A stretch of DNA of 64,000 nucleotides, taken from Escherichia coli. Its GTDB lineage: Bacteria > Pseudomonadota > Gammaproteobacteria > Enterobacterales > Enterobacteriaceae. Below are positions 1 through 27,608 of the stretch, one piece after another. The position numbers were made by a program, and so were the translations under genes. The notes under the pieces are model-generated. The model did not search any database. It was given only the letters and a program-made list of their open reading frames with translations, and was not told where the DNA came from. The stretch is taken from assembly GCF_050320075.1 (NCBI RefSeq), contig NZ_CP190018.1; one strand, given 5' to 3'. The stretch's first letter is position 1. Every line of letters starts with the position of its first letter.

Positions 1-104
1 GTGGGGGAATAATCAAAAACGATGCACACCGGGGTTACCGGGTACACATATTTCATCATGCCAGCGAGTCCGGTTCTGGCACGGAAGAAACCGGACGTTA
101 TGAT

Positions 105-515
105 TTAGTGCGGAAATATTTGTGTAGTGTTCTGAATGTTCTCAGTAAAGAGTAATGAATTATCAAAGGTATAGTAATACCTTTTGTTTTCGTGGATATT
201 TGTAATCCATCTGAAAACCCCTGCTGTAGCAAGATTTTTCCTGTATTCGTAAAATGATAACTCTCCTGATTTGAATCCTTTTAAGGTGGCTTCTATAAGG
301 CATTTATTTTTTGAAAATCTTACATTTACAACCTTACCCTGTCCTTTTATTAAAACCGTATTATCGTTTTCAAGAACAAGATGAATATTCTCTGTGGCTA
401 AATAGTAAATGTAATGTGAGACATTGTGACGTTTTAGTTCAGAATAAAACCAGTGATAGTTTAAATTATTTCGCACTTTATCGAATATTTGTTTAAAAAT
501 GGCAATCTGAGCCAT
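105..515 (-). CDS. DUF1398-family lambdoid late-region protein (YbcV-like)
   Basis: 141-aa ORF (likely start at internal Met, MAQIAIFK...); sequence recalls YbcV-type proteins found between lysis genes and cos in lambdoid prophages; identification from memory, not searched. Confidence 0.5.
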
Positions 516-572
516 TGTAGTACCTTCCATGTGATATGAGGGGGCGTAGTCTGCACGATTATCTAAATTGCT

Positions 573-806
573 TCAATCTGGTCTGACCTGTTTTCTGAGC
601 AATTCAGTAATGTCACTCTTTTCTTTGTTTGCTTCAGGCGAAACTCTTTTTTCTGAGCACAGTCTCCGGCGGCAGGCTTCAATGACCCAGGCTGAGAAAT
701 TCCCGGACCCTTTTTGAACAAGAGCGATGTTAATTTGTTCAATCATTTGGTTAGGAAAGCGGATGTTGCGGGTTGTTGTTCTGCGGGTTCTGTTCTTCGT
801 TGACAT
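573..806 (-). CDS. small lambdoid prophage protein (YlcI/DUF3950-like), basic N-terminus
   Basis: 77-aa ORF, Arg/Thr-rich N-terminus then conserved-looking core; position upstream of cos as in DLP12-type prophages; family assignment recalled, uncertain. Confidence 0.4.
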   Translation of the reverse strand: MSTKNRTRRTTTRNIRFPNQMIEQINIALVQKGSGNFSAWVIEACRRRLCSEKRVSPEANKEKSDITELLRKQVRPD

Positions 807-974
807 GAGGTTGCCCTGTATTCAGTGTCGCTGATTTGTATTGTCTGAAGTTGTTTTTACGTTAGGTTGATGCAGATCAATTAATACGATACCTGCGTCA
901 TAATTGATTATTTGACGTGGTTTGATGGCCTCCACGCACGTTGTGATATGTAGATGATAATCATTATCGCTTTA

Positions 975-1180
975 CGGGTCCTTTCCGGTGATCCGACAGG
1001 TTACGGGGCGGCGACCTCGCGGGTTTTCGCTATTTATGAAAATTTTCTGGGGAAAATCATGTCGGTACTTCTCGAACATAACTATTTGTTTTTTCTAATA
1101 TCGAATCCGTAAAAGGTCCGACATGAAAACGCCTAAAAAAGTCATTTTCGGGCACTTTCATGTCGGCCCCTGTATTTATT
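975..1180. other. cos: phage cos site (cosQ-cosN-cosB); 12-nt cohesive end GGGCGGCGACCT at 1005-1016
   Basis: Sequence ...ccgacaggttacg|gggcggcgacctcgcgggttttcgctatttatgaaaattttc... matches the lambda genome ends as I recall them; lies immediately upstream of Nu1. Confidence 0.85.
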
Positions 1181-1193
1181 GTGAGACTGTTTC

Positions 1194-1713
1194 ATGAAGG
1201 TTAATAAAAAGAAACTTGCCGAAATTTTCAACGTGGATCCGCGAACGATTGAACGCTGGCAGTCTCAGGGACTCCCTTGCGTCTCCGGAGGTGGTAAGGG
1301 CGTTGAATCTGTATTTGATACCGCCATGGCAATTCAGTGGTATGCGCAGAGGGAAGCTGATATCGAAAATGAAAAACTCCGTAAAGAGGTTGAGGATTAC
1401 AGGGCTGCCAGTGAGGCAGATCTCCAGCCTGGGACTATTGAGTACGAACGCCATCGACTTACGCGTGCGCAGGCCGACGCACAGGAGCTGAAGAATGCCA
1501 GAGACTCCGCAGAGGTGGTGGAAACCGCATTCTGTACTTTCGTGCTGTCACGGATCGCAGGTGAAATTGCCAGTATTCTTGACGGGATCCCTCTCTCGGT
1601 ACAGCGGCGTTTTCCGGAACTGGAAAACCGACATGTTGATTTCCTGAAACGGGATATCATCAAAGCCATGAACAAAGCAGCCGCGCTGGATGAACTGATA
1701 CCGGGGTTGCTGA

Positions 1714-1739
<26 letters not shown>
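1194..1739 (+). CDS. nu1: terminase small subunit Nu1
   Basis: 181 aa; near-identical over its length to lambda Nu1 as recalled (MxVNKKxLAxIF...EYIEQS); follows cos. Confidence 0.95.
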
Positions 1740-5420
<3,681 letters not shown>

Positions 5421-5440
<20 letters not shown>

Positions 5441-6740
5441 TCTCCCGCATATTGCCAGCATGGCTTTTAATGAGCCGCTGATGCTTGAACCCGCCTATGC
5501 GCGGGTTTTCTTTTGTGCGCTTGCAGGCCAGCTTGGGATCAGCCGCCTGACGGATGCAGTATCCGGCGACAGCCTGACTGCCGGAGAGGCACCCGCGGCG
5601 CTGGCGTTATCCGGTGATGATGACGGACCACGACAGGCCCGCAGTTATCAGGTCATGAACGGCATCGCCGTGCTGCCGGTGTCCGGTACGCTGGTCAGCC
5701 GGACGCGGGCGCTGCAGCCGTATTCGGGAATGACCGGTTACAACGGCATTATCGCCCGTCTGCAACAGGCTGCCAGCGATCCGATGGTGGACGGCATTCT
5801 GCTGGATATGGACACACCGGGCGGGATGGTGGCGGGAGCATTTGACTGTGCTGACATCATCGCCCGTGTGCGAGACATAAAACCGGTATGGGCGCTGGCC
5901 AACGACATGAACTGCAGTGCAGGTCAGCTGCTTGCCAGCGCCGCCTCCCGGCGTCTGGTCACGCAGACCGCCCGGACAGGCTCCATCGGCGTCATGATGG
6001 CTCACAGTAATTACGGTGCTGCGCTGGAGAAACAGGGCGTGGAAATCACGCTGATTTACAGCGGCAGCCATAAGGTGGATGGCAACCCCTACAGCCATCT
6101 ACCGGATGATGTCCGGGAAACACTGCAGTCCCGGATGGATGCAACCCGCCGGATGTTTGCACAGAAGGTGTCGGCATATACCGGCCTGTCCGTGCAGGCT
6201 GTGCTGGATACCGAGGCTGCAGTGTACAGCGGTCAGGAGGCCATTGATGCCGGACTGGCTGATGAACTTGTGAACAGTACCGATGCGATCACCGTCATGC
6301 GTGATGCACTGGATGCACGTAAATCCCGTCTCTCAGGAGGGCGAATGACCAAAGAGACTCAATCAACAACTGTTTCAGCCACTGCTTCGCAGGCTGACGT
6401 TACTGGCGTGGTGCAAGCGACGGAGGGCGAGAACGCCAGCGCTGCGCAGCCGGACGTGAACGCGCAGATCACCGCAGCGGTTGCGGCAGAAAACAGTCGC
6501 ATTATGGGGATCCTCAACTGTGAGGAGGCTCACGGACGCGAAGAACAGGCATGCGTGCTGGCCGAAACCCCTGGTATGACCGTGGAAACGGCCCGCCGTA
6601 TTCTGGCCGCAGCACCACAGAGTGCACAGACGCGCAGTGACACTGCGCTGGATCGTCTGATGCAGGGGGCACCGGCACCGCTGGCTGCAGGTAACCCGGC
6701 ATCTGATGCCGTTAACGATTTGCTGAACACACCAGTGTAA
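5421..6740 (+). CDS. C: head maturation protease/scaffold C (Nu3 expected from an in-frame internal start)
   Basis: Track ORF 5286..6740 is an upstream in-frame extension; GTG at 5421 preceded by GAGGAGAAGA gives the 439-aa lambda gpC-like product (VTAELRNLPHIASMAFNEP...). Confidence 0.85.
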
Positions 6741-6749
6741 GGGATGTTT

Positions 6750-7082
6750 ATGACGAGCAAAGAAACCTTTACCCATTACCAGCCGCTGGGCAACAGTGAC
6801 CCGGCTCATACCGCAACCGCGCCCGGCGGATTGAGTGCGAAAGCGCCTGCAATGACCCCGCTGATGCTGGACACCTCCACCCGTAAGCTGGTTGCGTGGG
6901 ATGGCACCACCGACGGTGCTGCCGTTGGCATTCTTGCAGTTGCTGCTGACCAGACCAGCACCACACTGACGTTCTACAAGTCCGGCACGTTCCGTTATGA
7001 GGATGTGCTCTGGCCGGAGGCTGCCAGCGACGAGACGAAAAAACGGACCGCGTTTGCCGGAACGGCAATCAGCATCGTTTAA
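6750..7082 (+). CDS. D: head decoration protein D
   Basis: 110 aa from second Met ([15 protein letters not shown]...), lambda gpD-like. Confidence 0.9.
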
Positions 7083-7102
7083 CTTTACCCTTCATCACTA
7101 AA

Positions 7103-7124
7103 GGCCGCCTGTGCGGCTTTTTTT
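7103..7124 (+). terminator. hairpin plus T-run after D
   Basis: gccgc-ctgt-gcggc followed by ttttttt. Confidence 0.4.
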
Positions 7125-7191
7125 ACGGGATTTTTTTTATGTCGATGTACACAACCGCCCAGCTGCTGGCGGCAAATGAGCAGAAATTTAA

Positions 7192-7199
7192 GTTTGATC
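7192..7199. repeat. target-site duplication GTTTGATC (left copy)
   Basis: Identical 8-mer directly flanks both ends of the IS. Confidence 0.85.
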
Positions 7200-7229
7200 G
7201 TAAGCGACTCGTCAGAACCGTATTGATAT

Positions 7230-8801
7230 TTACTGAGAGCTCAGATCAACTTTCCAGGGCAACAGATCGCGTACCCGGTTTGCCGGCCAGTCCTGGATAT
7301 GTTCAATGACGTAACGCAGCCACTTTTCTGGCTCCACATTGTTCAGACGGCATGTGCCGATCAGCGAGTACAACACCGCCGCATGTTCACCACCGCTGTC
7401 GGAACCCGCGAACATCCAGTTTTTCCGGCCTACGGCCACTCCCCGTAAGGCGTTCTCTGCGATGTTGTTGTCGATTTCCACCCAGCCATTACTGCAGTAC
7501 ACGTTCAGTGCATCCCACTGTTTCAGCAGGTATGCGAACGCTTTTGCCGTATCTGAGTGACGCGACAGTGTTTTCATCTGTTGCTGTATCCAGTCATACA
7601 GTGACTGCATCAGTGGCGCGGCTCTGGCTTTTCTTGCCGCCAGACGCTGTTCTGCTGAACAGCCCCGGACCTCTGCCTCGATGGCATACAGTTCACCGAT
7701 ACGCTGCAGGGCTTCCGTGGTGATGTAGGTGGGCGCTCTTGCATGCACATCGTGGATTTTTCTCCGGGCATGAGCCATACACGCGGCTTCCGTTATTCTG
7801 CCGGATTCGTATAACGCCCGGTAACCACCGTAAGCATCGGCCTGAAGCACACCGCTGTAACCGGCCAGGTGATTTTGTGGATGGATACCTTTCCGGTCCG
7901 GACTGTACGCGAACCAGACCGCCGGGGGCATCTGTGAACCGGCGTTACGGTCATCACGGACGTAGACCCACAGCCGGGCTGTCCGGGTTTTACCGCTGCC
8001 CGGCTCCTGGACCGGGACGGGGATATCATCAGCATGGACTTTACCGGGCATCAGCACATACTGGCGCAGGACGTCATACAGCGGCTCCAGCAGTTCAGCA
8101 ACAGCACCTGTCCAGCGCCCCAGTGTGGCACGGCTCAGCTCCACTCCCTGACGACGGTATATTTCTGACTGGCGGTATAACGGCAGATGGTCTGCATATT
8201 TCCCGGTGACAACATGGGCCAGAAGCCCCGCTCCGGCATAACTGCGTGCAATGGGTTTTGAAGGTACTGGTGCCTGCACGATATGGTCGCACCGGCAACA
8301 GGCCTGTTTCGGACGTTGTGTTTCGATAACCTTAAAGGCGCTGCTGATAAGCTCCAGTTGCTCTGACACATCACATCCCAGAGAACTGAGTTCACCACCA
8401 CAGGCAGGACAGCATTCCTCTTCCGGCCGGATAACCCGGGTTTCACGGGGAAGTGAGGCCGGTAACGGTTTACGGGCTGAAGACTGGCGCAGGGCGGATG
8501 GCAGTACCGGGTCATATTGCTCACCCAGCGTTTCCGCCATTTCTTCCTGAAGTGCGCTGATTCGCTCCTGTGCTTCCTGTATCTGCCGTTCGGTTTTTGC
8601 ACGAAGTTTTTCTGAGCTTTTACCGAACTGCATACGTTGCAGTTTCGCAACCAGCGCCTTCAGCCGGTTGATTTCGGAAGCATAAGCCGCCACCCGCTGT
8701 GAGAGCAGGCGGTTGTATTCAGCCATCTGGCGGATGGTGTCCTGTTGCGTCTGCAACAGTGCCCGCAGGCGGGCGTTCTCATGAGCAAGTGAGGTGTCCA
8801 T
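7230..8801 (-). CDS. tnpC: IS66-family transposase (Orf3/TnpC)
   Basis: 523 aa; N-terminal coiled-coil/leucine-zipper region, CxxC...C zinc-finger-like motifs and IS66 transposase-like core. Confidence 0.85.
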
Positions 8802-8820
8802 ATCCTCACTTTACAACGGG

Positions 8821-9168
8821 TTATATGCGGATTCCAGCGCGTTCCGTTCGTTTCGGGTGCTTCCAGTTGATACCTTCAAGAAGCATGGATAACTGAGCCG
8901 GAGTAAGGTGCACCTTGCCGTCACGGGTGACTGGCCAGACGAAGCGGCCCCGCTCCAGGCGTTTGGTGAAGAGGCACAGTCCGTCACTGTCAGCCCACAA
9001 CACTTTTATCTGGTCACCCCGGCGTCCGCGGAAGATGAACAGGTGTCCGGAGAACGGGTCATCCTTCAGGACGTTCTGAACTTTTGATGCCAGGCCGTTA
9101 AAGCCATTTCGCATATCGGTGATACCTGCAACCAGCCAGATACGCGAACCTGCAGGGAGAGATATCAT
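8821..9168 (-). CDS. tnpB: IS66 Orf2 (TnpB) accessory protein
   Basis: 115 aa, typical IS66 orf2 sequence (…FIFRGRRGDQIKVLWADSDGLCLFTKRLE…); ATGA overlap with upstream orf. Confidence 0.8.
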   Translation of the reverse strand: MISLPAGSRIWLVAGITDMRNGFNGLASKVQNVLKDDPFSGHLFIFRGRRGDQIKVLWADSDGLCLFTKRLERGRFVWPVTRDGKVHLTPAQLSMLLEGINWKHPKRTERAGIRI

Positions 9169-9845
9169 CAGTGGCTGCTCCCTTTTATTTCGCGGATAAG
9201 TGTCTGTAATAACGCCGGCGTCAGTTTACCTTTAAGCCTGAGAGTTCCGGCCGGCAGAACCAGCTCACAACACAGACTGTCGGACGGTGTATTTATCTGC
9301 TCTGGTTCCTGTGCGGGGGCCGGGATTTTATTATCCGGCTCCGGCGTTAACGTCACGGGAAGCAGTGCCGGCATATTTTTTCCGGAAGGCAGCAGGCCAC
9401 CTTTCCGGTATTGATGGCGCCAGTTGAAGAGCAGGTTATCGTTGATTCCGTTTTCCCGGGCGATCTGCGCCACACAGGCTCCGGGCTGCAGTGACTGCTC
9501 CACTAAGGCGATTTTAAACTCATAAGGGAAGTTGGGCCGCCGGGGACGTTTTTTTACCACGGGGGCTTCGGATATAACGGTGCTTTCAGGACGTACGACT
9601 GGTACCGTGGAAAATTGTCCGTAAAGGCAGGCATCAAGTTCCTGCTCCGACATGCCTGCGGGCAAAGGCCACGAAAGGCCAGCTCTCCGAAAGCGCACGA
9701 ACATACTACAAACTGTTGATTTTGGTACACCCAGGCGACGCCCGGCCACAACCCGGGGTAAATGTTCTTCAAAGTGAAGACGTAAAGCTTCAGTGATCCA
9801 GGTCCGGTGTTTCATACGATAGTGTCCATTAAAAATGATGGACAT
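9168..9845 (-). CDS. tnpA: IS66 Orf1 (TnpA) accessory protein
   Basis: First ORF inside the element, 53 bp from the IS end, same strand as orf2/orf3; true start may be an internal Met. Confidence 0.65.
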   Translation of the reverse strand: MSIIFNGHYRMKHRTWITEALRLHFEEHLPRVVAGRRLGVPKSTVCSMFVRFRRAGLSWPLPAGMSEQELDACLYGQFSTVPVVRPESTVISEAPVVKKRPRRPNFPYEFKIALVEQSLQPGACVAQIARENGINDNLLFNWRHQYRKGGLLPSGKNMPALLPVTLTPEPDNKIPAPAQEPEQINTPSDSLCCELVLPAGTLRLKGKLTPALLQTLIREIKGSSH

Positions 9846-9898
9846 TATTTTTGTAGAGCCGGAGGAAACAGACCAGACGGTTTAAATGAGCCGGTTAC

Positions 9899-9906
9899 GT
9901 TTGATC
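9899..9906. repeat. target-site duplication GTTTGATC (right copy)
   Basis: Identical to 7192-7199. Confidence 0.85.
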
Positions 9907-10912
9907 CGCTGTTTCTGCGTCTCTTTTTCCGTGAGAGCTATCCCTTCACCACGGAGAAAGTCTATCTCTCACAAATTCCGGGACTGGTAAACATAGCGCT
10001 GTACGTTTCGCCGATTGTTTCCGGTGAGGTTATCCGTTCCCGTGGCGGCTCCACCTCTGAATTTACGCCGGGATATGTCAAGCCGAAGCATGAAGTGAAT
10101 CCGCAGATGACCCTGCGTCGCCTGCCGGATGAAGATCCGCAGAATCTGGCGGACCCGGCTTACCGCCGCCGTCGCATCATCCTGCAGAACATGCGTGACG
10201 AAGAGCTGGCCATTGCTCAGGTCGAAGAGATGCAGGCAGTTTCTGCCGTGCTCAAGGGCAAATACACCATGACCGGTGAAGCCTTCGATCCGGTTGAGGT
10301 GGATATGGGCCGCAGTGAGGCGAATAACATCACGCAGTCCGGCGGCACGGAGTGGAGCAAGCGTGACAAGTCCACGTATGACCCGACCGACGATATCGAA
10401 GCCTACGCGCTGAACGCCAGCGGAGTGGTGAATATCATCGTGTTTGATCCGAAAGGCTGGGCGCTGTTCCGTTCCTTCAAAGCCGTCAGGGAGAAGCTGG
10501 ATACTCGTCGCGGCTCTCATTCCGAGCTGGAGACAGCGGTGAAAGACCTGGGCAAAGCGGTGTCCTACAAGGGGATGTATGGCGATGTGGCCATCGTCGT
10601 GTATTCCGGACAGTACGTGGAAAACGGCGTCAAAAAGAACTTCCTGCCGGACAACACGATGGTGCTGGGGAACACTCAGGCACGCGGTCTGCGCACCTAT
10701 GGCTGCATTCAGGATGCGGACGCACAGCGCGAAGGCATTAACTCCTCTGCCCGTTACCCGAAAAACTGGGTGACCACCGGCGATCCGGCGCGTGAGTTCA
10801 CCATGATTCAGTCAGCACCGCTGATGCTGCTGGCTGACCCTGATGAGTTCGTGTCCGTACAACTGGCGTAATCGTGGCCCTTCGGGGCCATTTTCTCTCT
10901 GTGGAGGAGTCC

Positions 10913-11308
10913 ATGACGAAAGATGAACTGATTGTCCGTCTCCGGTCGCTGGGTGAGCAACTGAACCGTGATGTCAGCCTGACGGGGACGAAAGAAGAAC
11001 TGGCGCTCCGTGTGGCAGAGCTGGAAGAGGAGCTTGATGACACGGATGACGCTGCCGGTCAGGATACCCCTCTCAGACCGGAAAATGCGCTGACCGGACA
11101 TGAAAATGAGGTGGTATCAGAGCAGCCGGATACCATGATTGATACGGCTGCTCTGGTCACGGTCGTGGCACTGGTGACGCTGCATACTGATGCACTTCAC
11201 GCCACGCGGGATGAACCTGTGGCATTTGTGCTGCCGGGAACGGCGTTTCGTGTCTCTGTCGGTGTGGCAGCTGAAATGACAGAGCGCGGCCTGGCCAGAA
11301 TGCAATAA
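10913..11308 (+). CDS. FI: DNA-packaging/head assembly protein FI
   Basis: Starts MTKDELIVRLRSLGEQLNRDVSLTGTKEELALRVAELEEELDD...; lambda gpFI-like; track ORF starts 39 nt earlier. Confidence 0.85.
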   Translation: MTKDELIVRLRSLGEQLNRDVSLTGTKEELALRVAELEEELDDTDDAAGQDTPLRPENALTGHENEVVSEQPDTMIDTAALVTVVALVTLHTDALHATRDEPVAFVLPGTAFRVSVGVAAEMTERGLARMQ

Positions 11309-11319
11309 CGGGAGGCGCT

Positions 11320-11673
11320 GTGGCTGATTTCGATAACCTGTTCGATGCTGCCATTGCCCGCGCCGATGAAACGATACGCGGGTACATGGGAACGTCAGCC
11401 ACCATGACATCCGGTGAGCAGTCCGGCGCAGTAATACGTGGTGTTTTTGATGACCCTGAAAATATCAGCTATGCCGGACAGGGCGTACGCGTTGAAGGCT
11501 CCAGCCCGTCCCTGTTTGTCCGGACTGATGATGTGCGGCAGCTGCGGCGTGGAGACACGCTGATCATCGGTGAGGAAAACTTCTGGGTAGATCGGGTTAC
11601 GCCGGATGATGGCGGAAGCTGTCATCTCTGGCTTGGGCGGGGCGTACCGCCTGCCGTTAACCGTCGCCGCTGA
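11320..11673 (+). CDS. FII: head-tail connector FII
   Basis: 117 aa, lambda gpFII-like. Confidence 0.9.
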   Translation: MADFDNLFDAAIARADETIRGYMGTSATMTSGEQSGAVIRGVFDDPENISYAGQGVRVEGSSPSLFVRTDDVRQLRRGDTLIIGEENFWVDRVTPDDGGSCHLWLGRGVPPAVNRRR

Positions 11674-11684
11674 AAGGGGGATGT

Positions 11685-12263
11685 ATGGCCATAAAAGGTC
11701 TTGAGCAGGCCGTTGAAAACCTCAGCCGTATCAGCAAAACGGCGGTGCCCGGTGCCGCCGCAATGGCCATTAACCGCGTTGCTTCATCCGCGATATCGCA
11801 GTCTGCGTCACAGGTTGCCCGTGAGACAAAGGTACGCCGGAAACTGGTAAAGGAAAGGGCCAGGCTGAAAAGGGCCACGGTCAAAAATCCGCAGGCCAGA
11901 ATCAGGGTTAACCGGGGGGATTTGCCCGTAATCAGGCTGGGTAATGCGCGGGTTGTCCTGTCCCGCCGCAGGCGTCGTAAAAAGGGGCAGCGTTCATCCC
12001 TGAAAGGTGGCGGCAGCGTGCTTGTGGTGGGAAACCGTCGTATTCCCGGCGCGTTTATTCAGCAACTGAAAAATGGCCGGTGGCATGTCATGCAGCGTGT
12101 GGCCGGGAAAAACCGTTACCCCATTGATGTGGTGAAAATCCCGATGGCGGTGCCGCTGACCACGGCGTTTAAACAGAATATTGAGCGGATACGGCGTGAG
12201 CGTCTTCCGAAAGAGCTGGGCTATGCGCTGCAGCATCAACTGAGAATGGTAATAAAGCGATGA
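11685..12263 (+). CDS. Z: tail completion protein Z
   Basis: 192 aa, lambda gpZ length/position. Confidence 0.9.
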   Translation: MAIKGLEQAVENLSRISKTAVPGAAAMAINRVASSAISQSASQVARETKVRRKLVKERARLKRATVKNPQARIRVNRGDLPVIRLGNARVVLSRRRRRKKGQRSSLKGGGSVLVVGNRRIPGAFIQQLKNGRWHVMQRVAGKNRYPIDVVKIPMAVPLTTAFKQNIERIRRERLPKELGYALQHQLRMVIKR

Positions 12264-12655
12264 AACATACTGAACTCCGTGCAGCCGTACTGGATGCACT
12301 GGAGAAGCATGACACCGGGGCGACGCTTTTTGATGGTCGCCCCGCTGTTTTTGATGAGGCGGATTTTCCGGCAGTTGCCGTTTATCTCACCGGCGCTGAA
12401 TACACGGGCGAAGAGCTGGACAGCGATACCTGGCAGGCGGAGCTGCATATCGAAGTTTTCCTGCCTGCTCAGGTGCCGGATTCAGAGCTGGATGCGTGGA
12501 TGGAGTCCCGGATTTATCCGGTGATGAGCGATATCCCGGCACTGTCAGATTTGATCACCAGTATGGTGGCCAGTGGCTATGACTACCGGCGCGACGATGA
12601 TGCGGGCCTGTGGAGTTCAGCCGATCTGACTTATGTCATTACCTATGAAATGTGA
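12260..12655 (+). CDS. U: tail terminator protein U
   Basis: 131 aa, lambda gpU length/position. Confidence 0.9.
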
Positions 12656-12662
12656 GGACGAT

Positions 12663-13403
12663 ATGCCAACACCAAATCCTCTGGCACCGGTGAAAGGGGC
12701 CGGGACCACACTGTGGGTTTATAAGGGGAACGGTGACCCTTATGCGAACCCGCTTTCAGACGTTGACTGGTCGCGTCTGGCAAAAGTTAAAGACCTGACA
12801 CCCGGCGAACTGACCGCTGAGTCCTATGACGACAGCTATCTCGATGATGAAGATGCGGACTGGACTGCGACCGGGCAGGGGCAGAAATCCGCCGGAGATA
12901 CCAGCTTCACGCTGGCGTGGATGCCCGGAGAGCAGGGGCAGCAGGCGCTGCTGGCGTGGTTTAATGAAGGTGATACCCGTGCCTATAAAATCCGCTTCCC
13001 GAACGGCACGGTCGATGTGTTCCGCGGCTGGGTCAGCAGTATCGGTAAGGCGGTGACGGCGAAGGAAGTGATCACCCGCACGGTGAAAGTCACCAATGTG
13101 GGACGTCCGTCGATGGCAGAAGATCGCAGCACGGTAACAGCGGTAACCGGTATGACCGTGACGCCAGCCAGCGCTTCCGTAGTGAAAGGGAAGAGCACCA
13201 CGCTGAGCGTGGCATTCCAGCCGGAAGGCGCAACCGACAAGAGCTTCCGTGCGGTGTCAGCGGATAAAACAAAAGCCACCGTGTCGGTCAGTGGTATGAC
13301 CATCACCGTGAATGGCGTTGCTGCAGGCAAGGTCAACATTCCGGTTGTATCCGGTAATGGTGAGTTTGCTGCGGTTGCAGAAATCACCGTCACCGCCAGT
13401 TAA
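12663..13403 (+). CDS. V: major tail tube protein V (with C-terminal Ig-like domain)
   Basis: 246 aa from internal Met ([22 protein letters not shown]...), lambda gpV-like. Confidence 0.95.
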
Positions 13404-13418
13404 TCCGGAGAATCAGAG

Positions 13419-13841
13419 ATGTTCCTGAAAACCGAATCATTTGAACATAACGGTGTGACCGTCACGCTTTCTGAACTGTCAGCCCTGCAGCGTATTGAGC
13501 ATCTCGCCCTGATGAAACGGCAGGCAGAACAGGCGGAGTCAGACAGCAACCGGAAGTTTACTGTGGAAGACGCCATCAGAACCGGCGCGTTTCTGGTGGC
13601 GATGTCCCTGTGGCATAACCATCCGCAGAAGACAAAGCAGCCTTCCATGAATGAAGCCGTTAAACAGATTGAGCAGGAAGTGCTTACCACCTGGCCCACA
13701 GAGGCAATTTCTCATGCTGAAAACGTGGTGTACCGGCTGTCTGGTATGTATGAGTTTGTGGTGAATAATGCCCCTGAACAGGAAGAGGACGCCGGGCCCG
13801 CAGAGCCTGTTTCTGCGGGAAAGTGTTCGACGGTGAGCTGA
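13419..13841 (+). CDS. G: tail assembly chaperone G
   Basis: 140 aa, lambda gpG-like. Confidence 0.9.
   Translation: MFLKTESFEHNGVTVTLSELSALQRIEHLALMKRQAEQAESDSNRKFTVEDAIRTGAFLVAMSLWHNHPQKTKQPSMNEAVKQIEQEVLTTWPTEAISHAENVVYRLSGMYEFVVNNAPEQEEDAGPAEPVSAGKCSTVS
13817..13823 (+). other. -1 programmed frameshift slippery heptamer G GGA AAG (G to G-T)
   Basis: Heptamer in the G frame (codons GGA AAG) 18 nt before the G stop; T frame open from 13823. Confidence 0.8.
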
Positions 13842-14257
13842 GTTTTGCCCTGAAACTGGCGCGTGAGATGGGGCGACCCGACTGGCGTGCCATGCTTGCC
13901 GGGATGTCATCCACGGAGTATGCCGACTGGCACCGCTTTTACAGTACCCATTATTTTCATGATGTTCTGCTGGATATGCACTTTTCCGGGCTGACGTACA
14001 CCGTGCTCAGCCTGTTTTTCAGCGATCCGGATATGCATCCGCTGGATTTCAGTCTGCTGAACCGGCGCGAGGCTGACGAAGAGCCTGAAGATGATGTGCT
14101 GATGCAGAAAGCGGCAGGGCTTGCCGGAGGTGTCCGCTTTGGCCCGGACGGGAATGAAGTTATCCCCGCTTCCCCGGATGTGGCGGACATGACGGAGGAT
14201 GACGTAATGCTGATGACAGTATCAGAAGGGATCGCAGGAGGAGTCCGGTATGGCTGA
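13823..14257 (+). CDS. T: tail assembly protein T portion (expected to be made as G-T fusion by -1 frameshift)
   Basis: 144-codon open frame overlapping G 3' end, lambda gpT-like. Confidence 0.85.
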   Translation: MFDGELSFALKLAREMGRPDWRAMLAGMSSTEYADWHRFYSTHYFHDVLLDMHFSGLTYTVLSLFFSDPDMHPLDFSLLNRREADEEPEDDVLMQKAAGLAGGVRFGPDGNEVIPASPDVADMTEDDVMLMTVSEGIAGGVRYG

Positions 14258-16811
14258 ACCGGTAGGCGATCTGGTCGTTGATTTGAGTCTGGATGCGGCC
14301 AGATTTGACGAGCAGATGGCCAGAGTCAGGCGTCATTTTTCCGGTACGGAAAGTGATGCGAAAAGAACAGCGGCAGTCGTTGAACAGTCGCTGAGCCGAC
14401 AGGCGCTGGCTGCACAGAAAGCGGGGATTTCCGTCGGGCAGTATAAAGCCGCCATGCGTATGCTGCCTGCACAGTTCACCGACGTGGCCACGCAGCTTGC
14501 AGGCGGGCAAAGCCCGTGGCTGATCCTGCTGCAACAGGGTGGTCAGGTTAAGGACTCCTTCGGCGGGATGATCCCCATGTTCCGGGGGCTTGCCGGTGCG
14601 ATCACCCTGCCGATGGTCGGGGCCACCTCGCTGGCGGTGGCGACCGGTGCGCTGGCGTATGCCTGGTATCAGGGTAACTCAACCCTGTCCGATTTCAACA
14701 AAACGCTGGTCCTTTCCGGTAATCAGTCGGGTCTGACGGCAGATCGTATGCTGGTCCTGTCCAGAGCCGGGCAGGCGGCAGGGCTGACGTTTAACCAGAC
14801 CAGCGAGTCACTCAGTGCACTGGTTAAGGCGGGGGTAAGCGGTGAGGCTCAGATTGCGTCCATCAGCCAGAGTGTGGCGCGTTTCTCTTCTGCATCCGGT
14901 GTGGAGGTGGACAAGGTCGCTGAAGCCTTCGGGAAGCTGACCACTGACCCGACGTCGGGGCTGACGGCGATGGCGCGCCAGTTCCATAACGTGACGGCGG
15001 AGCAGATTGCGTATGTTGCTCAGTTGCAGCGTTCCGGCGATGAAGCCGGGGCATTGCAGGCGGCGAACGAAGCCGCAACGAAAGGGTTTGATGACCAGAC
15101 CCGCCGCCTGAAAGAGAACATGGGCACGCTGGAGACCTGGGCAGACAGGACAGCGCGGGCATTCAAATCCATGTGGGATGCGGTGCTGGATATTGGTCGT
15201 CCTGATACCGCGCAGGAGATGCTGATTAAGGCAGAGGCTGCGTTTAAGAAAGCAGACGACATCTGGAATCTGCGCAAGGATGATTATTTTGTTAACGATG
15301 AAGCGCGGGCGCGTTACTGGGATGATCGTGAAAAGGCCCGTCTTGCGCTTGAAGCCGCCCGAAAGAAGGCTGAGCAGCAGACTCAACAGGACAAAAATGC
15401 GCAGCAGCAGAGCGATACCGAAGCGTCACGGCTGAAATATACCGAAGAGGCGCAGAAGGCTTACGAACGGCTGCAGACGCCGCTGGAGAAATATACCGCC
15501 CGTCAGGAAGAACTGAACAAGGCACTGAAAGACGGGAAAATCCTGCAGGCGGATTACAACACGCTGATGGCGGCGGCGAAAAAGGATTATGAAGCGACGC
15601 TGAAAAAGCCGCAACAGTCCGGCGTGAAGGTGTCTGCGGGCGATCGTCAGGAAGACAGTGCTTATGCTGCCCTGCTGACGCTTCAGGCAGAACTCCGGAC
15701 GCTGGAGAAGCATGCCGGAGCGAATGAGAAAATCAGCCAGCAGCGCCGGGATTTGTGGAAGGCGGAGAGTCAGTTCGCGGTACTGGAGGAGGCGGCGCAA
15801 CGTCGCCAGCTGTCTGCACAGGAGAAATCCCTGCTGGCGCATAAAGATGAGACGCTGAAGTACAAACGCCAGCTGGCTGCACTTGGCGACAAGGTTACGT
15901 ATCAGGAGCGCCTGAACGCGCTGGCGCAGCAGGCGGATAAATTCGCACAGCAGCAACGGGCAAAACGGGCCGCCATTGATGCGAAAAGCCGGGGGCTGAC
16001 TGACCGGCAGGCAGAACGGGAAGCCACGGAACAGCGCCTGAAGGAACAGTATGGCGATAATCCGCTGGCGCTGAATAACGTCATGTCAGAGCAGAAAAAG
16101 ACCTGGGCGGCTGAAGACCAGCTTCGCGGGAGCTGGATGGCAGGCCTGAAGTCCGGCTGGAGTGAGTGGGAAGAGAGCGCCACGGACAGTATGTCGCAGG
16201 TTAAAAGTGCAGCCACGCAGACCTTTGATGGTATTGCACAGAATATGGCGGCGATGCTGACCGGCAGTGAGCAGAACTGGCGCAGCTTCACCCGTTCCGT
16301 GCTGTCCATGATGACAGAAATTCTGCTTAAGCAGGCAATGGTGGGGATTGTCGGGAGTATCGGCAGCGCCATTGGCGGTGCTGCCAGTGGTGGAGCATCC
16401 GCGTCAGGCGGTACAGCCATTCAGGCCGCTGCGGCGAAATTCCATTTTGCGACCGGGGGATTTACGGGAACCGGCGGCAAATATGAGCCAGCGGGGATTG
16501 TTCACCGTGGTGAATTTGTCTTCACGAAGGAGGCAACCAGCCGGATTGGTGTCGGCAACCTGTACCGCCTGATGCGGGGCTATGCGGAAGGTGGTTATGT
16601 GGGCGGTGCCGGAAGTCCGGCGCAGATGCGGCGGGCTGAAGGCATTAATTTTAATCAGAACAATCACGTGGTGATTCAGAACGACGGTACGAATGGTCTG
16701 CCAGGTCCACAGATGATGAAGGCAGTGTATGACATGGCCCGCAAGGGTGCCCGTGATGAAATTCAGGCACAGATGCGTGATGGTGGTCTGTTCTCCGGAG
16801 GTGGACGATGA
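14250..16811 (+). CDS. H: tail tape measure protein H
   Basis: 853 aa, coiled-coil-rich, lambda gpH length and position. Confidence 0.95.
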   Translation: MAEPVGDLVVDLSLDAARFDEQMARVRRHFSGTESDAKRTAAVVEQSLSRQALAAQKAGISVGQYKAAMRMLPAQFTDVATQLAGGQSPWLILLQQGGQVKDSFGGMIPMFRGLAGAITLPMVGATSLAVATGALAYAWYQGNSTLSDFNKTLVLSGNQSGLTADRMLVLSRAGQAAGLTFNQTSESLSALVKAGVSGEAQIASISQSVARFSSASGVEVDKVAEAFGKLTTDPTSGLTAMARQFHNVTAEQIAYVAQLQRSGDEAGALQAANEAATKGFDDQTRRLKENMGTLETWADRTARAFKSMWDAVLDIGRPDTAQEMLIKAEAAFKKADDIWNLRKDDYFVNDEARARYWDDREKARLALEAARKKAEQQTQQDKNAQQQSDTEASRLKYTEEAQKAYERLQTPLEKYTARQEELNKALKDGKILQADYNTLMAAAKKDYEATLKKPQQSGVKVSAGDRQEDSAYAALLTLQAELRTLEKHAGANEKISQQRRDLWKAESQFAVLEEAAQRRQLSAQEKSLLAHKDETLKYKRQLAALGDKVTYQERLNALAQQADKFAQQQRAKRAAIDAKSRGLTDRQAEREATEQRLKEQYGDNPLALNNVMSEQKKTWAAEDQLRGSWMAGLKSGWSEWEESATDSMSQVKSAATQTFDGIAQNMAAMLTGSEQNWRSFTRSVLSMMTEILLKQAMVGIVGSIGSAIGGAASGGASASGGTAIQAAAAKFHFATGGFTGTGGKYEPAGIVHRGEFVFTKEATSRIGVGNLYRLMRGYAEGGYVGGAGSPAQMRRAEGINFNQNNHVVIQNDGTNGLPGPQMMKAVYDMARKGARDEIQAQMRDGGLFSGGGR

Positions 16812-17137
16812 AAACCTTCCGCTGGAAAGTGAAACCCGGTATGGATGTGGCTTCGGCCCCTTCCGTAAGAAAGGTGCGCTTTGGTGATGGCTATTCCCAG
16901 CGAGCGCCTGCCGGGCTGAACGCTGACCTGAAAACGTACAGCGTGACGCTTTCTGTTCACCGTTGGGAGGCCACGGCGCTGGAGTCGTTTCTGGCTGAGC
17001 ACGGGGGCTGGAAGGCCTTTCTGTGGACGCCGCCTTATGAGTGGCGGCAGATAAAGGTGACCTGCGCAAAATGGACGTCGCGGGTCAGTATGCTGCGTGT
17101 TGAGTTCAGCGCAGAGTTTGAACAGGTGGTGAACTGA
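16808..17137 (+). CDS. M: tail tip protein M
   Basis: 109 aa, lambda gpM-like. Confidence 0.9.
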   Translation: MKTFRWKVKPGMDVASAPSVRKVRFGDGYSQRAPAGLNADLKTYSVTLSVHRWEATALESFLAEHGGWKAFLWTPPYEWRQIKVTCAKWTSRVSMLRVEFSAEFEQVVN

Positions 17138-17835
17138 TGCAGGATATCCGGCAGGAAACACTGAATGAATGCACCCGTGCGGAGCAGTCGGCCAGCGTGG
17201 TGCTCTGGGAAATCGATCTGACAGAGGTCGGTGGAGAACGTTATTTTTTCTGTAATGAGCAGAACGAAAAAGGTGAGCCGGTCACCTGGCAGGGGCGGCA
17301 GTATCTGGCGTATCCCATTCAGGGGAGTGGTTTTGAACTGAATGGCAAAGGCACCAGTACGCGCCCCATGCTGGCAGTCTCTAACCTGTACGGCATGGTC
17401 ACCGGGATGGCGGAAGACCTGCAGAGTCTGGTCGGCGGAACGGTGGTCAGGCGTAAGGTTTACGCCCGTTTTCTGGATGCGGTGAACTTCGTCAACGGAA
17501 ACAGCGATGCCGATCCGGAGCAGGAGGTGATCAGCCGCTGGCGCATCGAACAGTGCAGCGAACTGAGCGCGGTCAGTGCCTCTTTTGTACTGTCCACACC
17601 GACGGAAACGGACGGCGCTGTTTTTCCGGGGCGCATCATGCTGGCCAACACCTGCACCTGGACCTATCGCGGTGATGAGTGCGGTTATCACGGTCCGGCG
17701 GTCGCGGATGAATATGACCAGCCGACGTCCGATATCACGAAGGATAAATGCAGCAAATGCCTGAGTGGCTGTAAGTTTCGCAATAATGTCGGCAACTTTG
17801 GCGGCTTCCTTTCCATTAACAAACTTTCGCAGTAA
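17137..17835 (+). CDS. L: tail tip protein L
   Basis: 232 aa, lambda gpL-like. Confidence 0.9.
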   Translation: MQDIRQETLNECTRAEQSASVVLWEIDLTEVGGERYFFCNEQNEKGEPVTWQGRQYLAYPIQGSGFELNGKGTSTRPMLAVSNLYGMVTGMAEDLQSLVGGTVVRRKVYARFLDAVNFVNGNSDADPEQEVISRWRIEQCSELSAVSASFVLSTPTETDGAVFPGRIMLANTCTWTYRGDECGYHGPAVADEYDQPTSDITKDKCSKCLSGCKFRNNVGNFGGFLSINKLSQ

Positions 17836-17840
17836 ATCCC

Positions 17841-18584
17841 ATGACAGAGACAGAATCAGCGATTCTGGCGCACGCCCGGCGATGTGCGCCAGCGGAGTCG
17901 TGCGGCTTCGTGGTGAGAACGCCGGAGGGGGAAAGATATTTTCCCTGCGTGAATATCTCCGGTGAGCCGGAGGATTATTTCCGGATGTCGCCGGAGGACT
18001 GGCTGCAGGCAGAGATGCAGGGTGAGATTGTGGCGCTGGTCCACAGTCATCCCGGTGGTCTGCCCTGGCTGAGTGAGGCTGACCGGTGGCTGCAGGTGCA
18101 GAGTGATTTGCCGTGGTGGCTGGTCTGCCGGGGGGCGATTCACAAGTTCCGCTGTGTGCCGCATCTCACCGGGCGGCGCTTTGAGCACGGGGTGACGGAC
18201 TGTTACACGCTGTTCCGGGACGCTTACCATCTGGCGGGGATTGAGATGCCGGATTTTACGCGGGAGGATGACTGGTGGCGTCACGGTCAGAATCTCTATC
18301 TGGATAATCTGGAGGCCACAGGGCTGTATCAGGTGCCGTTGTCAGCGGCGCAGCCGGGCGATGTGCTGCTGTGCTGTTTTGGTTCATCGGTGCCGAATCA
18401 CGCCGCAATTTACTGCGGCGACGGCGAGCTGCTGCACCATATTCCTGAACAACTGAGCAAACGAGAGAGGTATACCGACAAATGGCAGCGACGCACACAC
18501 TCCCTCTGGCGTCACCGGGCATGGCGCGCATCTGCCTTTACGGGGATTTACAACGATTTGGTCGCCGCATCGACCTTCGTGTGA
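17841..18584 (+). CDS. K: tail tip assembly protein K (MPN/JAMM-like motif HSHPGG plus NlpC/P60-like C-terminal part)
   Basis: 247-aa ORF; a shorter lambda-style annotation would start at Met 17985, but the metalloprotease-like motif region argues for the long form. Confidence 0.85.
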   Translation: MTETESAILAHARRCAPAESCGFVVRTPEGERYFPCVNISGEPEDYFRMSPEDWLQAEMQGEIVALVHSHPGGLPWLSEADRWLQVQSDLPWWLVCRGAIHKFRCVPHLTGRRFEHGVTDCYTLFRDAYHLAGIEMPDFTREDDWWRHGQNLYLDNLEATGLYQVPLSAAQPGDVLLCCFGSSVPNHAAIYCGDGELLHHIPEQLSKRERYTDKWQRRTHSLWRHRAWRASAFTGIYNDLVAASTFV

Positions 18585-19123
18585 AAACGGGGGCTGAAGC
18601 CATCCGGGCGCTGGCCACACAGCTCCCGGCGTTTCGTCAGAAACTGAGCGACGGCTGGTATCAGGTACGGATTGCCGGGCGTGATACAGGTGAAACGGAA
18701 TTATCAGCCCGTCTTAATGAACCGCTGGCAAATGGTGCTGTGATCCATATCGTGCCGCGTCTGGCAGGAGCCAAAAGTGGCGGTGTGTTTCAGGCTGTGC
18801 TGGGGGCGGCTGTTATGGCGGTTGCTATATGGATGCCGGGGGTAGGAATTATGGCGAGTAATCTGCTGTTTTCTCTCGGTGCCAGTATGACGCTTGGCGG
18901 TGTTGCACAGATGCTGGCCCCTAAACCCAAAACCCCCCGCACACAGACAACGGATAACGGCAAACAGAACACCTATTTTTCTTCACTGGATAATATGGTT
19001 GCCCAGGGCAATGTTCTGCCCGTTCTGTACGGTGAAATGCGCGTGGGATCACGTGTGGTATCTCAGGAGATCAGCACAGCAGATGAAGGTGATGGTGGTC
19101 AGGTTGTGGTGATTGGTCGCTGA
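18482..19123 (+). CDS. I: tail tip assembly protein I
   Basis: 213 aa, overlaps K 3' end in another frame as in lambda. Confidence 0.85.
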   Translation: MAATHTLPLASPGMARICLYGDLQRFGRRIDLRVKTGAEAIRALATQLPAFRQKLSDGWYQVRIAGRDTGETELSARLNEPLANGAVIHIVPRLAGAKSGGVFQAVLGAAVMAVAIWMPGVGIMASNLLFSLGASMTLGGVAQMLAPKPKTPRTQTTDNGKQNTYFSSLDNMVAQGNVLPVLYGEMRVGSRVVSQEISTADEGDGGQVVVIGR

Positions 19124-19183
19124 TGAAAAACGTTTTATGTGAAACCGCCTCCGGGCGGTTTTATCGTTTATGGAGCATGACGA

Positions 19184-22100: not shown

Positions 22101-22663
22101 CGGCATTTTCCCTGACACCGGACGGGCGGCTGACGGCGAAAAATGCCGATATCAGCGGTAACGTGAATGCGAACTCCGGGACGCTCAACAACGTCACGAT
22201 TAACGAGAACTGCCGGGTTCTGGGAAAACTGTCCGCGAACCAGATTGAAGGCGATCTCGTTAAAACAGTGGGTAAAGCTTTCCCCCGGGACTCCCGTGCA
22301 CCGGAACGGTGGCCATCAGGGACCATTACCGTCAGGATTTATGACGATCAGCCGTTTGACCGACAGATTGTTATTCCGGCGGTGGCATTCAGCGGCGCTA
22401 AGCATGAGAGAGAGCATACTGATATTTACTCCTCATGCCGTCTGATAGTGCGGAAAAACGGTGCTGAAATTTATAACCGTACCGCGCTGGATAATACGCT
22501 GATTTACAGTGGCGTTATTGATATGCCTGCCGGTCACGGTCACATGACGCTGGAGTTTTCGGTGTCAGCATGGCTGGTAAATAACTGGTATCCCACAGCA
22601 AGTATCAGCGATTTGCTGGTTGTGGTGATGAAGAAAGCCACCGCAGGCATCAGTATCAGCTGA
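19184..22663 (+). CDS. J: central tail fibre / host specificity protein J
   Basis: 1159 aa, lambda gpJ-like order and N-terminal/central sequence. Confidence 0.9.
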
Positions 22664-22730: not shown

Positions 22731-23330
22731 ATGCGTAAATTATGTGCTGTTATTCTGTCCACAGTAGTCTGGCTGGTCGCCGCTGGTACGCCAGCGAGCG
22801 CAGCAGAGCATCAGTCCACACTAAGCGCCGGGTATCTTCAGACCCATACTGATATGCCCGGCAACGATGACCTGAAGGGCATTAACGTGAAATACCGTTA
22901 TGAATTTACGGACACGCTGGGGCTGGTGACGTCATTCAGTTATGCCAATGCCAAAGATGAGCAAAAAACGCATTACAGCGATACCCGCTGGCATGAAGAT
23001 TCAGTGCGTAACCGCTGGTTCAGCATGATGGCGGGGCCGTCTGTACGCGTGAATGAATGGTTCAGTGCTTATGCGATGGCAGGTGTGGCTTACAGCCGTG
23101 TTTCGACTTTTTCCGGGGATTATCTCCGCGTAACTGACAGCAAGGGGAAAACGCACGATGTGCTGACCGGAAGTGATGACGGTCGCCACAGCAACACGTC
23201 TCTGGCGTGGGGGGCTGGCGTGCAGTTTAACCCGACCGAATCCGTGGCCATTGATATTGCTTATGAAGGTTCCGGCAGTGGCGACTGGCGCACTGACGGT
23301 TTCATCGTGGGTGTCGGTTATAAATTCTGA
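22731..23330 (+). CDS. lom: Lom outer-membrane protein (Ail/Lom family)
   Basis: 199 aa with signal peptide, beta-barrel-type sequence ending ...GVGYKF; lambda lom position. Confidence 0.9.
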   Translation: MRKLCAVILSTVVWLVAAGTPASAAEHQSTLSAGYLQTHTDMPGNDDLKGINVKYRYEFTDTLGLVTSFSYANAKDEQKTHYSDTRWHEDSVRNRWFSMMAGPSVRVNEWFSAYAMAGVAYSRVSTFSGDYLRVTDSKGKTHDVLTGSDDGRHSNTSLAWGAGVQFNPTESVAIDIAYEGSGSGDWRTDGFIVGVGYKF

Positions 23331-23357
23331 TTAGCCAGATAACACAGTGTTATGACA

Positions 23358-23383
23358 GCCCGCCGGTTCAGGCGGGCTTTTTT
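23358..23383 (+). terminator. hairpin plus T-run after lom
   Basis: gcccgcc-ggttca-ggcgggc followed by tttttt. Confidence 0.5.
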
Positions 23384-23388
23384 GTGGA

Positions 23389-25794: not shown

Positions 25795-26072
25795 AAGATT
25801 TAACACTCAAATTTGCAGACAGGGCCGACTTTTCGGCCTTTATGGAGAGCATTGGCTATTATGATGACGAGTCGATGCAGGATGATATTCTTATTGACGT
25901 GATAGGTAATGTGTACAAAGAAACCGGAGAACTGACTGAAGATGGCGAACCGGTATGTGTTAAGGAAGACGGATATTTTGTAAACGTGCGCATCATTAAT
26001 GATTCGCAAATATCGTCAATATTCGATGAATACGTGGTTGCTGTTGAGCATCAACTTCGTGGCTGGATGTGA
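25791..26072 (+). CDS. acidic 93-aa hypothetical protein, translationally coupled to stf
   Basis: ATG overlaps stf stop (ATGA); AT-rich; no family recognised. Confidence 0.55.
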   Translation: MKDLTLKFADRADFSAFMESIGYYDDESMQDDILIDVIGNVYKETGELTEDGEPVCVKEDGYFVNVRIINDSQISSIFDEYVVAVEHQLRGWM

Positions 26073-26081
26073 GGAAGAAAA

Positions 26082-27122: not shown

Positions 27123-27158
27123 TATTAAGGGGCCGAGCGCCCCGTTTTATTGGGTAGG

Positions 27159-27458: not shown

Positions 27459-27608
27459 AAAAAGGTGGGCTGTATATGCAACGGAGGAAGAAACCACGTT
27501 GCTGGAAGCCTGGAAGAAGTATCGGGTGTTGCTGAACCGTGTTAATACAACAACTGCACCGGATATTGAATGGCCAACAGTACCCATTATCGAATAGTGC
27601 ATTACGAA

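Follow-up and report, generated by a model that had tools for sequence, protein, structure and literature searches.

The major capsid gene E of the lambdoid prophage in the window (the whole 64,000-nucleotide stretch of Escherichia coli DNA analysed here) is interrupted by a complete copy of the insertion sequence ISCro1. We are highly confident in the account as a whole, namely that ISCro1 jumped recently into E of a prophage integrated at serU, that the interrupted gene spread with its clone and that the site was not a random one. An active copy of ISCro1, a DDE-transposase IS that is very abundant in E. coli, would have transposed into E, and the 8-bp staggered cut and repair that are usual for ISCro1 would have duplicated GTTTGATC. 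Despite its recent origin, the IS-bearing allele has since spread with its clone. The choice of site was non-random, as it combines the AT-richest spot of the head region with a top-0.1% match to the target preference of the element. The copy in the window is itself presumably active.

The interrupting element had been predicted to belong to the IS66 family. Domain profiles and identity to annotated copies agree with this assignment and make it more precise, as ISCro1. Its parts are as follows:

7200-9898, minus strand: complete copy of ISCro1 (IS66 family), 2,699 bp, with its genes antisense to the phage late operon
7200-7221, plus strand: terminal inverted repeat at the tnpC-proximal end, GTAAGCGACTCGTCAGAACCGT, unique in the window
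9877-9898, minus strand: terminal inverted repeat at the tnpA-proximal end, GTAACCGGCTCATTTAAACCGT on the minus strand, one copy in the window
9168-9845, minus strand: tnpA, 225 aa, IS66 accessory protein with a helix-turn-helix (PF01527, 55 bits; NF038385, 296 bits with a cut-off of 150)
8821-9168, minus strand: tnpB, 115 aa, IS66 Orf2-like accessory protein (PF05717, 136 bits; NF033819)
7230-8801, minus strand: tnpC, 523 aa, DDE transposase (PF03050, 346 bits; PF13007, PF13005 and PF13817; NF033517, 478 bits with a cut-off of 180)

The three genes follow one another on the minus strand in the order tnpA-tnpB-tnpC, and the tnpA stop and tnpB start overlap by 1 nt (base 9168). TnpC carries leucine-zipper, zinc-finger, DDE and C-terminal IS66 domains, and all Pfam matches exceeded their gathering scores. 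The inverted repeats are imperfect, agreeing at 16 of 22 positions, and each begins with GTAA. Thus the three-gene layout, the TnpA, TnpB and TnpC types, the repeats and the 8-bp duplication are all those of the IS66 family. At the nucleotide level the element is 100% identical to copies named 'ISCro1 family' by RefSeq/PGAP (4,545 matching records), and the name used here comes from this annotation of identical copies rather than from the ISfinder reference entry. The same sequence is present in the genomes YZLc1-3, Ec-U3, E04 and DLI.6n. Genomes with any match have a median of 2 matching places and a maximum of 34, and complete E. coli genomes together contain about 14,000 such places. The name ISCro1 was introduced for Citrobacter rodentium ICC168, with a count of 24 copies in that strain (PMC3072379); the window copy shares the gene layout, domains and 8-bp duplication of ISCro1 as named and, judged against the RefSeq-annotated copies, is a standard one with no detectable difference.

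The insertion splits E near its start:

7139-7199, plus strand: 5' fragment of E, codons 1-20 plus 1 nt, continuing into the IS as a 56-aa ORF that ends at 7309
7192-7199, no strand assigned: left 8-bp target-site duplication, GTTTGATC, covering E codons 18-20 and the first base of codon 21, and present as a single copy at a natural empty site (locus L062)
9899-9906, no strand assigned: right 8-bp target-site duplication, GTTTGATC
9907-10871, plus strand: 3' fragment of E, from the rest of codon 21 to codon 341 and the stop

The original prediction placed the break after codon 20, with a 2,699-bp element inserted there, and our mapping refined this to codon 20 plus one base. The duplication is perfect; by chance alone, 8 bp would agree at the two ends about once in 65,536. 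When we deleted 7200-9906 in silico, the frame of E was restored exactly, as had been predicted, giving an uninterrupted 341-codon ORF (beginning MSMYTTAQLLAANEQKFKFD and followed by PLFLRL...) whose product shares 98.2% identity with lambda gpE. The 3' fragment of E is entered in frame by an ORF whose GTG start lies at 9807, within the IS. Neither the 56-aa left-junction ORF nor this 354-aa fusion ORF returned an exact match when looked up. RefSeq annotates the 3' fragment, with a CTG start, as a 320-aa 'major capsid protein', a product found on 12 contigs, and since this call looks intact, prophage-completeness tools may score the prophage as intact.

Natural empty sites supported the recent date that had been proposed for the insertion. 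In four loci (L062, L063, L064 and L069) the same prophage lacks the IS and has a single GTTTGATC; these loci showed 0 mismatches to window positions 1-7199; downstream of the IS they differ by 1-7 substitutions over 3.7-11 kb, with 3 additional gaps in L063. The existence of IS-free siblings with a 100% identical upstream flank of 7.2 kb indicates that the insertion is recent, and the identity of the IS to copies elsewhere points the same way. The strain of assembly GCA_021503195.1 is one such IS-free sibling. That the same DNA occurs both with and without the IS also demonstrates the mobility of the element. The IS-bearing allele is not unique to one strain: it occurs in at least 12 assemblies, some of them complete genomes produced by different laboratories. 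Over the 64 kb of the window, Ec-U3 shows 5 substitutions and YZLc1-3 about 10, and members of the clone with the IS-bearing allele came from chickens (China) and humans (Burkina Faso).

We compared the rest of the prophage with phage lambda (NC_001416). The relevant features are:

1006-1017, plus strand: cosN cohesive-end sequence, GGGCGGCGACCT
1194-6740, plus strand: head genes nu1, A, W, B and C/nu3, all full length
6750-7082, plus strand: head decoration gene D, intact, 98.2% amino acid identity to lambda
7100-7124, plus strand: D-E intergenic hairpin with a 9-bp stem followed by a T-run, the most AT-rich part of the 8-kb head region
10913-22663, plus strand: FI, FII, Z, U, V, G/T, H, M, L, K, I and J, all full length
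22731-27597, plus strand: non-lambda right arm with an Ail/Lom-family gene, a different side-tail-fibre set and a tfa remnant
29595-29656, plus strand: attR, a 62-bp exact repeat of the 3' end of tRNA-Ser (serU), the right boundary of the integrated prophage

The genes from nu1 to J are collinear with lambda, and apart from E every head and tail reading frame among them is full length, consistent with the prediction that they were intact. The D-E hairpin was missed by a simple terminator scan, and folding of the region gave an overall z-score that was not significant. The predicted near-identity to lambda holds for the A-K module, in which the proteins are 92.7-100% identical to their lambda counterparts with the exception of FI (88.6%). 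It does not extend to nu1 (83%), I (81%) or J (83%). The cosN sequence is identical; the nick region and the cosQ side match lambda almost completely, with a single substitution in the 120 nt shown, whereas cosB is divergent. The host-range genes and right arm are not those of lambda either: the Ail/Lom-family gene is 45% identical to lom, stf is different and tfa is reduced to a remnant of 39 codons (27478-27597). Moreover, lambda integrates between gal and bio, whereas this prophage occupies serU.

The early and lysis half lies outside the window. According to the relatives YZLc1-3 and Ec-U3, attL is located ~18 kb upstream of the window, and we infer the state of this half from these two near-identical complete genomes. 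In both, the genes are Qin/Rac-like (dicB, ydfABC, ydaT, hokD, DUF968, rusA and rrrQ); a lambda-type early region (N, cI/cro, O/P, Q, S/R/Rz) was absent from them, and the early region is thus a further part to which the likeness to lambda does not apply. The prediction that the prophage can probably replicate and lyse concerns this half and goes beyond what the window itself supports. The lysis cassette appears intact in both genomes. However, the int gene is flagged as frameshifted in both, an ExoVIII-type gene is frameshifted in one, and there are several accessory pseudogenes. We considered the int flag as proof of decay and dropped it: frame 0 stays open for 340 aa, spans the H...Y catalytic motif and stops at attL, and the flag may be an annotation effect.

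By analogy with the biology of lambda E mutants, gpE truncated after residue 20 should leave this prophage, on its own, unable to make proheads. The prediction that no capsids are built unless the IS is lost is overstated, however: it overlooked a second lambda-type E locus, which is present elsewhere in the genomes of clone-mates and could complement the defect or repair E by recombination. A related situation is known from the lambdoid prophages of EHEC O157 Sakai, among which Sp4 has nu1 broken by an IS and head-defective prophages are still packaged via complementation by co-resident ones (Asadulghani et al. 2009, PMC2669165). The likeness lies in the IS-broken morphogenesis or packaging gene and in the second lambda-type E locus of the clone; in Sakai the IS and the gene are different ones.

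The identical 8 bp is used repeatedly and independently, in both orientations, in other E. coli strains. In the prophage of ETEC H10407 (NC_017633.1, about 1,314,175-1,316,873), a 2,699-bp ISCro1 that differs at 2 positions interrupts the same E codons with the same duplication, GTTTGATC, but in the opposite orientation and in another prophage and host lineage, which marks it as an independent event. DLI.6n also carries ISCro1 in the opposite orientation with GTTTGATC duplicated. In TUM12368 the site and the orientation are those of the window, and the early region of the prophage is different. Further ISCro1 sites lie at -76, -40 and +10 bp from the window site. In 2EC1 the IS sits in the D-E spacer, at the hairpin (duplication GCTTTTTT), and in MS1657 between U and V. 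Altogether, the mapped ISCro1 insertions in lambda-type prophages (n = 19) cluster at the D/E and U/V boundaries, but the D/E cluster came partly from a search aimed there, so that its size relative to other zones is biased (the unbiased sample is the 12 blind picks, of which 1 was near D/E). All 19 have perfect 8-bp duplications. An early candidate, an oriented hotspot with three sites within 76 bp in one orientation, was discarded: the 801-bp junction query detects only about +/-160 bp, and with queries of 4 kb + IS + 4 kb in both orientations (153 and 58 genomes) the apparent orientation bias was gone. A rough estimate of insertion density was indecisive after IS enrichment in prophages was allowed for.

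The duplicated sequences are rich in AT and show T at -5 and A/T at -3. The mapped sites average 49% AT compared to 43% for the region (P about 1e-4), and the AT-richest 200-bp bin of the region is D/E. We derived a weight matrix independently, from 46 distinct sites found by scanning IMG/VR for the left end of the IS (0 of the 46 lay within nu1-J), and although the target preference that it describes is weak, GTTTGATC scored in its top 0.1%. The same short-range matrix failed at the U/V cluster (0.98x enrichment), so AT-richness and sequence preference are an incomplete account. We tentatively suggest, at slightly below even confidence, that ISCro1 is drawn non-randomly to two zones of ~200 bp, one at the start of E and the other at the start of V, with targeting at U/V going beyond the 8-bp preference and AT content; the cause of this regional preference we can only infer. 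A literature search on IS66 target preference or a hotspot at the E site found nothing relevant. The nearest case known to us is the afa/dr regulatory region of E. coli ST131, where ISCro1 occupies a position used by other insertions, termed an IS hotspot (PMC8764528); there different ISs share one site, whereas here a single IS uses two zones in phage structural genes.

Could all ISCro1 copies at GTTTGATC descend from one ancient insertion that homologous recombination spread among lambdoid prophages, with no hotspot at all? Such prophages recombine freely, and TUM12368 shares site and orientation with the window clone, the two IS copies being 1 nt apart. However, recombination cannot yield the opposite orientation seen at the same 8 bp in H10407 and DLI.6n, which largely refutes this explanation. 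In addition, the flanks in TUM12368 keep the normal divergence of 2-3% up to 61 and 44 bp from the IS, so that acquisition by gene conversion, which could in principle have occurred, would have involved very short flanks. The E alleles are all intact after in-silico excision and their differences are biased towards synonymous changes (14 synonymous versus 6 non-synonymous in TUM12368), indicating that they diverged as working genes before each insertion, and the window prophage has IS-free siblings. We therefore regard a single ancestral insertion as very unlikely. That the IS in E is a misplaced multi-copy repeat is less probable still, to the point of being negligible: ISCro1 is indeed multi-copy and such repeats are a classic source of misassembly, but the duplication lies exactly at the IS termini, the junctions are identical in all of the independent assemblies counted above, and three short contigs (L073-L075) stop inside the IS at the expected junction.

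Clustering at the starts of E and V might also result from selection after random insertion, for example if the host gained from losing the two most abundant virion proteins. Both clusters do coincide with gene starts, one with that of the major capsid gene and one with that of the major tail gene, and the U/V cluster that the matrix leaves unexplained fits this view. Under selection, however, hits would be expected along the whole of E (1,026 bp) and V (741 bp), and none mapped to the remaining ~950 bp of E. Several insertions, moreover, are intergenic with intact neighbours, among them those in 2EC1 and MS1657. Finally, loss of capsid or tail does not prevent lambda from lysing the cell on induction. 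We consider selection improbable, though a more serious contender than a single ancestral insertion, and retain repeated, independent and non-random insertion as the preferred reading.

The breaking of prophage genes by insertion sequences is a textbook route of prophage decay. ISCro1 in E is a real but ordinary event of an already catalogued kind, to which the recurrent hotspot is a modest extra. The IS-split E allele is already present in public genomes and has little significance by itself, but the pair of filled and empty sites within one clone is useful for dating a prophage-disabling event, and the repeated use of GTTTGATC together with the E and V zones provides a natural data set for target choice in the IS66 family. 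If the targeting of two zones is true, an IS66-family transposase would be responding to a regional cue that has gone unrecognised, for instance protein-bound or bent DNA or local structure, and ISCro1 would disable lambdoid prophages across E. coli in a recurrent, semi-directed way.

The gene for the major capsid protein, E, in the lambda-type prophage at serU is split by a complete copy of ISCro1, an insertion sequence of the IS66 family. All three ISCro1 proteins (IS66-family TnpA, TnpB and DDE transposase) scored above the curated Pfam and NCBIfam cut-offs, and the element was 100% identical to RefSeq copies annotated as ISCro1. Its terminal inverted repeats are imperfect (16 of 22 positions match), and each end occurs only once in the window.

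Features of the insertion sequence
7200-9898, antisense to the phage late operon: ISCro1, complete, 2,699 bp
9845..9168, minus strand: tnpA, 225 aa
9168..8821, minus strand: tnpB, 115 aa, one-base overlap with tnpA
8801..7230, minus strand: tnpC, 523 aa

Copies of the 8-bp target GTTTGATC flank the element at 7192-7199 and 9899-9906, and E is broken after codon 20 plus one base. When ISCro1 and one repeat were removed in silico, a 341-codon E was obtained (98.2% protein identity to lambda gpE), as the original prediction of an IS66-family element in E with an intact duplication had it. The strongest confirmation of the insertion comes from natural IS-free copies of E. Four loci from other genomes (L062, L063, L064 and L069) carry the same prophage with a single GTTTGATC and without the IS; they matched window positions 1-7199 with 0 mismatches and differed by 1-7 substitutions in the 3.7-11 kb that follow the IS (with 3 gaps besides in L063). 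An uninterrupted E with exactly the same amino-acid sequence was found on at least 19 contigs among the matches listed in the look-up. The window's IS is also identical to copies carried by unrelated genomes which, together with flanks that match those of the IS-free siblings, indicates that the insertion is young; the proposed recent knock-out of E thus held. The allele is common to more than one strain. Only 5 substitutions in 64 kb separate the window from Ec-U3 (human urine, Burkina Faso) and about 10 separate it from YZLc1-3 (chicken, China), and a truncated E product is called 3' of the IS on 12 contigs, of which 8 exceed 1 Mb.

The insertion shortens gpE to 20 native residues followed by 36 IS-encoded ones, and therefore no proheads should be expected from this prophage by itself. 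The tail genes are uninterrupted. A GTG at 9807 inside the IS opens a predicted reading frame that continues in frame into the remainder of E. As each of the two clone-mates (the near-identical genomes Ec-U3 and YZLc1-3) carries a second locus, outside the window, that matches the 3' part of E, complementation or recombinational repair of the defect is possible; for head-defective O157 prophages it has been demonstrated by experiment (PMC2669165). In RefSeq, the clone-mates' E remainder (window 9909-10871) is annotated as an intact 320-aa 'major capsid protein' with a CTG start and without a pseudogene flag. This product stands in protein databases on 12 contigs and could mislead the scoring of prophage completeness.

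We then compared the rest of the prophage with lambda. Once the IS was removed, nu1-J (the head and tail genes) were all full length, in agreement with the expectation that no head-tail frame other than E is broken.

Protein identity to lambda, and right boundary of the prophage
A, W, B, C, D, E, FII, Z, U, V, G, T, H, L, K: 96-100%
M: 93%
FI: 89%
nu1, I, J: 81-83%
lom: 45%
29595-29656: right prophage boundary, 62-bp repeat of the serU 3' end

The cosN site is that of lambda whereas cosB has diverged, and the side tail fibre is unlike lambda's. Only the last 39 codons of tfa remain (27478-27597), 3' of a 294-bp ORF; because the prophage of TUM12368 has the same arrangement, this remnant may be the relic of a past exchange of tail-fibre modules, not a sign of recent decay. 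Between it and the right boundary, inside the att-bounded element, lie a sensor diguanylate-cyclase gene (27671-29001, minus strand; frameshifted in YZLc1-3, intact in Ec-U3) and a 72-bp 'capsid protein' fragment (29283-29354). The early half of the prophage is upstream of the window and was read from the clone-mates instead. In both it is Qin/Rac-like (dicB, ydfABC, ydaT, hokD, DUF968, rusA, a Q-like antiterminator and rrrQ), and none of the lambda immunity or replication genes was present in it. The lysis cassette looks intact in both genomes; several accessory genes are pseudogenes, an ExoVIII-type gene is frameshifted in one of the two, and the integrase is flagged as frameshifted in both, yet reads 340 aa through the catalytic motif, ending at attL. 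Thus, the description 'otherwise lambda-near-identical' applies to the head-tail module but not to the early half, lom or the side tail fibre/tfa region.

The same 8 bp have been used repeatedly. In TUM12368, ISCro1 sits at the identical site in the same orientation as in the window, in a prophage whose early region is wholly different and whose flanks differ from the window's by 2-3% up to points 61 and 44 bp from the IS. In ETEC H10407 (duplicate record SEC470) and DLI.6n it occupies the same site in the opposite orientation, with GTTTGATC duplications. Nearby insertions were found at -76 bp in 2EC1 (in the T-run of the D-E hairpin, leaving E intact), at -40 bp in ABWA45 and at +10 bp in ECONIH5. 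All E alleles were intact after in-silico excision and their mutual differences were mostly synonymous (14 synonymous to 6 non-synonymous for the window against TUM12368); the flanks thus accumulated their differences while the genes still worked, ahead of each insertion. In H10407 (NC_017633.1; L079, L076), ISCro1 has disabled two distinct lambda-type prophages, one through E (opposite orientation) and the other through U (window orientation).

ISCro1 matches were numerous (4,545 records, spread over 3,017 of 5,426 complete E. coli genomes). Queries of 4 kb + IS + 4 kb in both orientations placed ISCro1 within or close to genes B-H of a lambda-type late region in 153 genomes for the window orientation, many of them an O26:H11 clone in which the IS splits gene C, and in 58 for the opposite one. 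Perfect 8-bp duplications flanked all 19 mapped insertions (18 prophages), three of which were in FII or Z. The U-end/V-start zone (window equivalents 12536-12773, uninterrupted in the window itself) was hit in eight lineages at 7 distinct sites, including GTACCAAA, a second target hit in both orientations. The D-end/E-start zone was also hit in eight lineages, a count inflated by targeted search. Of 12 insertions picked without knowledge of their position, only one fell in this zone and eight fell within 238 bp at U/V, which occurred 0 times in 300,000 uniform simulations.

Could target preference explain these zones? In a profile derived from IMG/VR (46 independent ISCro1 flanks), the duplications were AT-rich, with a preference for T at -5 and for A/T at -3. 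Under this profile GTTTGATC scored among the best 0.1% of positions. Within the 8 kb, the 200-bp bin richest in AT is the D/E boundary, and head-region insertion sites were AT-enriched (49% versus 43%, P about 1e-4). The U/V zone showed no enrichment under the profile (0.98x), and eight insertions in one interval arose in 1 of 100,000 profile-weighted simulations; the U/V cluster is not accounted for by the 8-bp preference and remains improbable even under that null. Selection for gene loss is an unlikely cause because the insertions spare the bodies of E and V and in some cases fall between genes.

Other mobile DNA was noticed. Just past attR, window 29822-29971 is 96% identical to an ISCro1 flank in an IMG/VR contig (L058), so related DNA has served as an ISCro1 target as well; this region may be the remnant of a further mobile element. 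By fliE (about 59718-61116), the clone-mates' annotation shows a frameshifted DUF5503 gene and an integrase fragment of 99 bp, which look like the decayed remains of an integrative element lying between yedL and the fli operons. In E. coli E04 (NZ_CM143912.1, L006 20339-38302), an island of 16.9 kb bounded by the 10-bp direct repeat AGCCGAAGCA interrupts a lambda-type E at codons 79-82. The island looks like a capsid-forming satellite, as it encodes an integrase, a primase and SSB together with decoration and major capsid proteins of its own, besides a TIR-domain protein. The E-integrase junction recurs in 172 of the 5,426 complete genomes. This suggests that integration is site-specific, with a helper-type capsid gene as the target; for cf-PICIs, six attB sites have been reported.

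The hotspots for insertion are of modest interest and remain explained only in part. The knock-out of E by ISCro1 is ordinary biology, one case of a recurrent and already sequenced class that includes the reference ETEC strain H10407.
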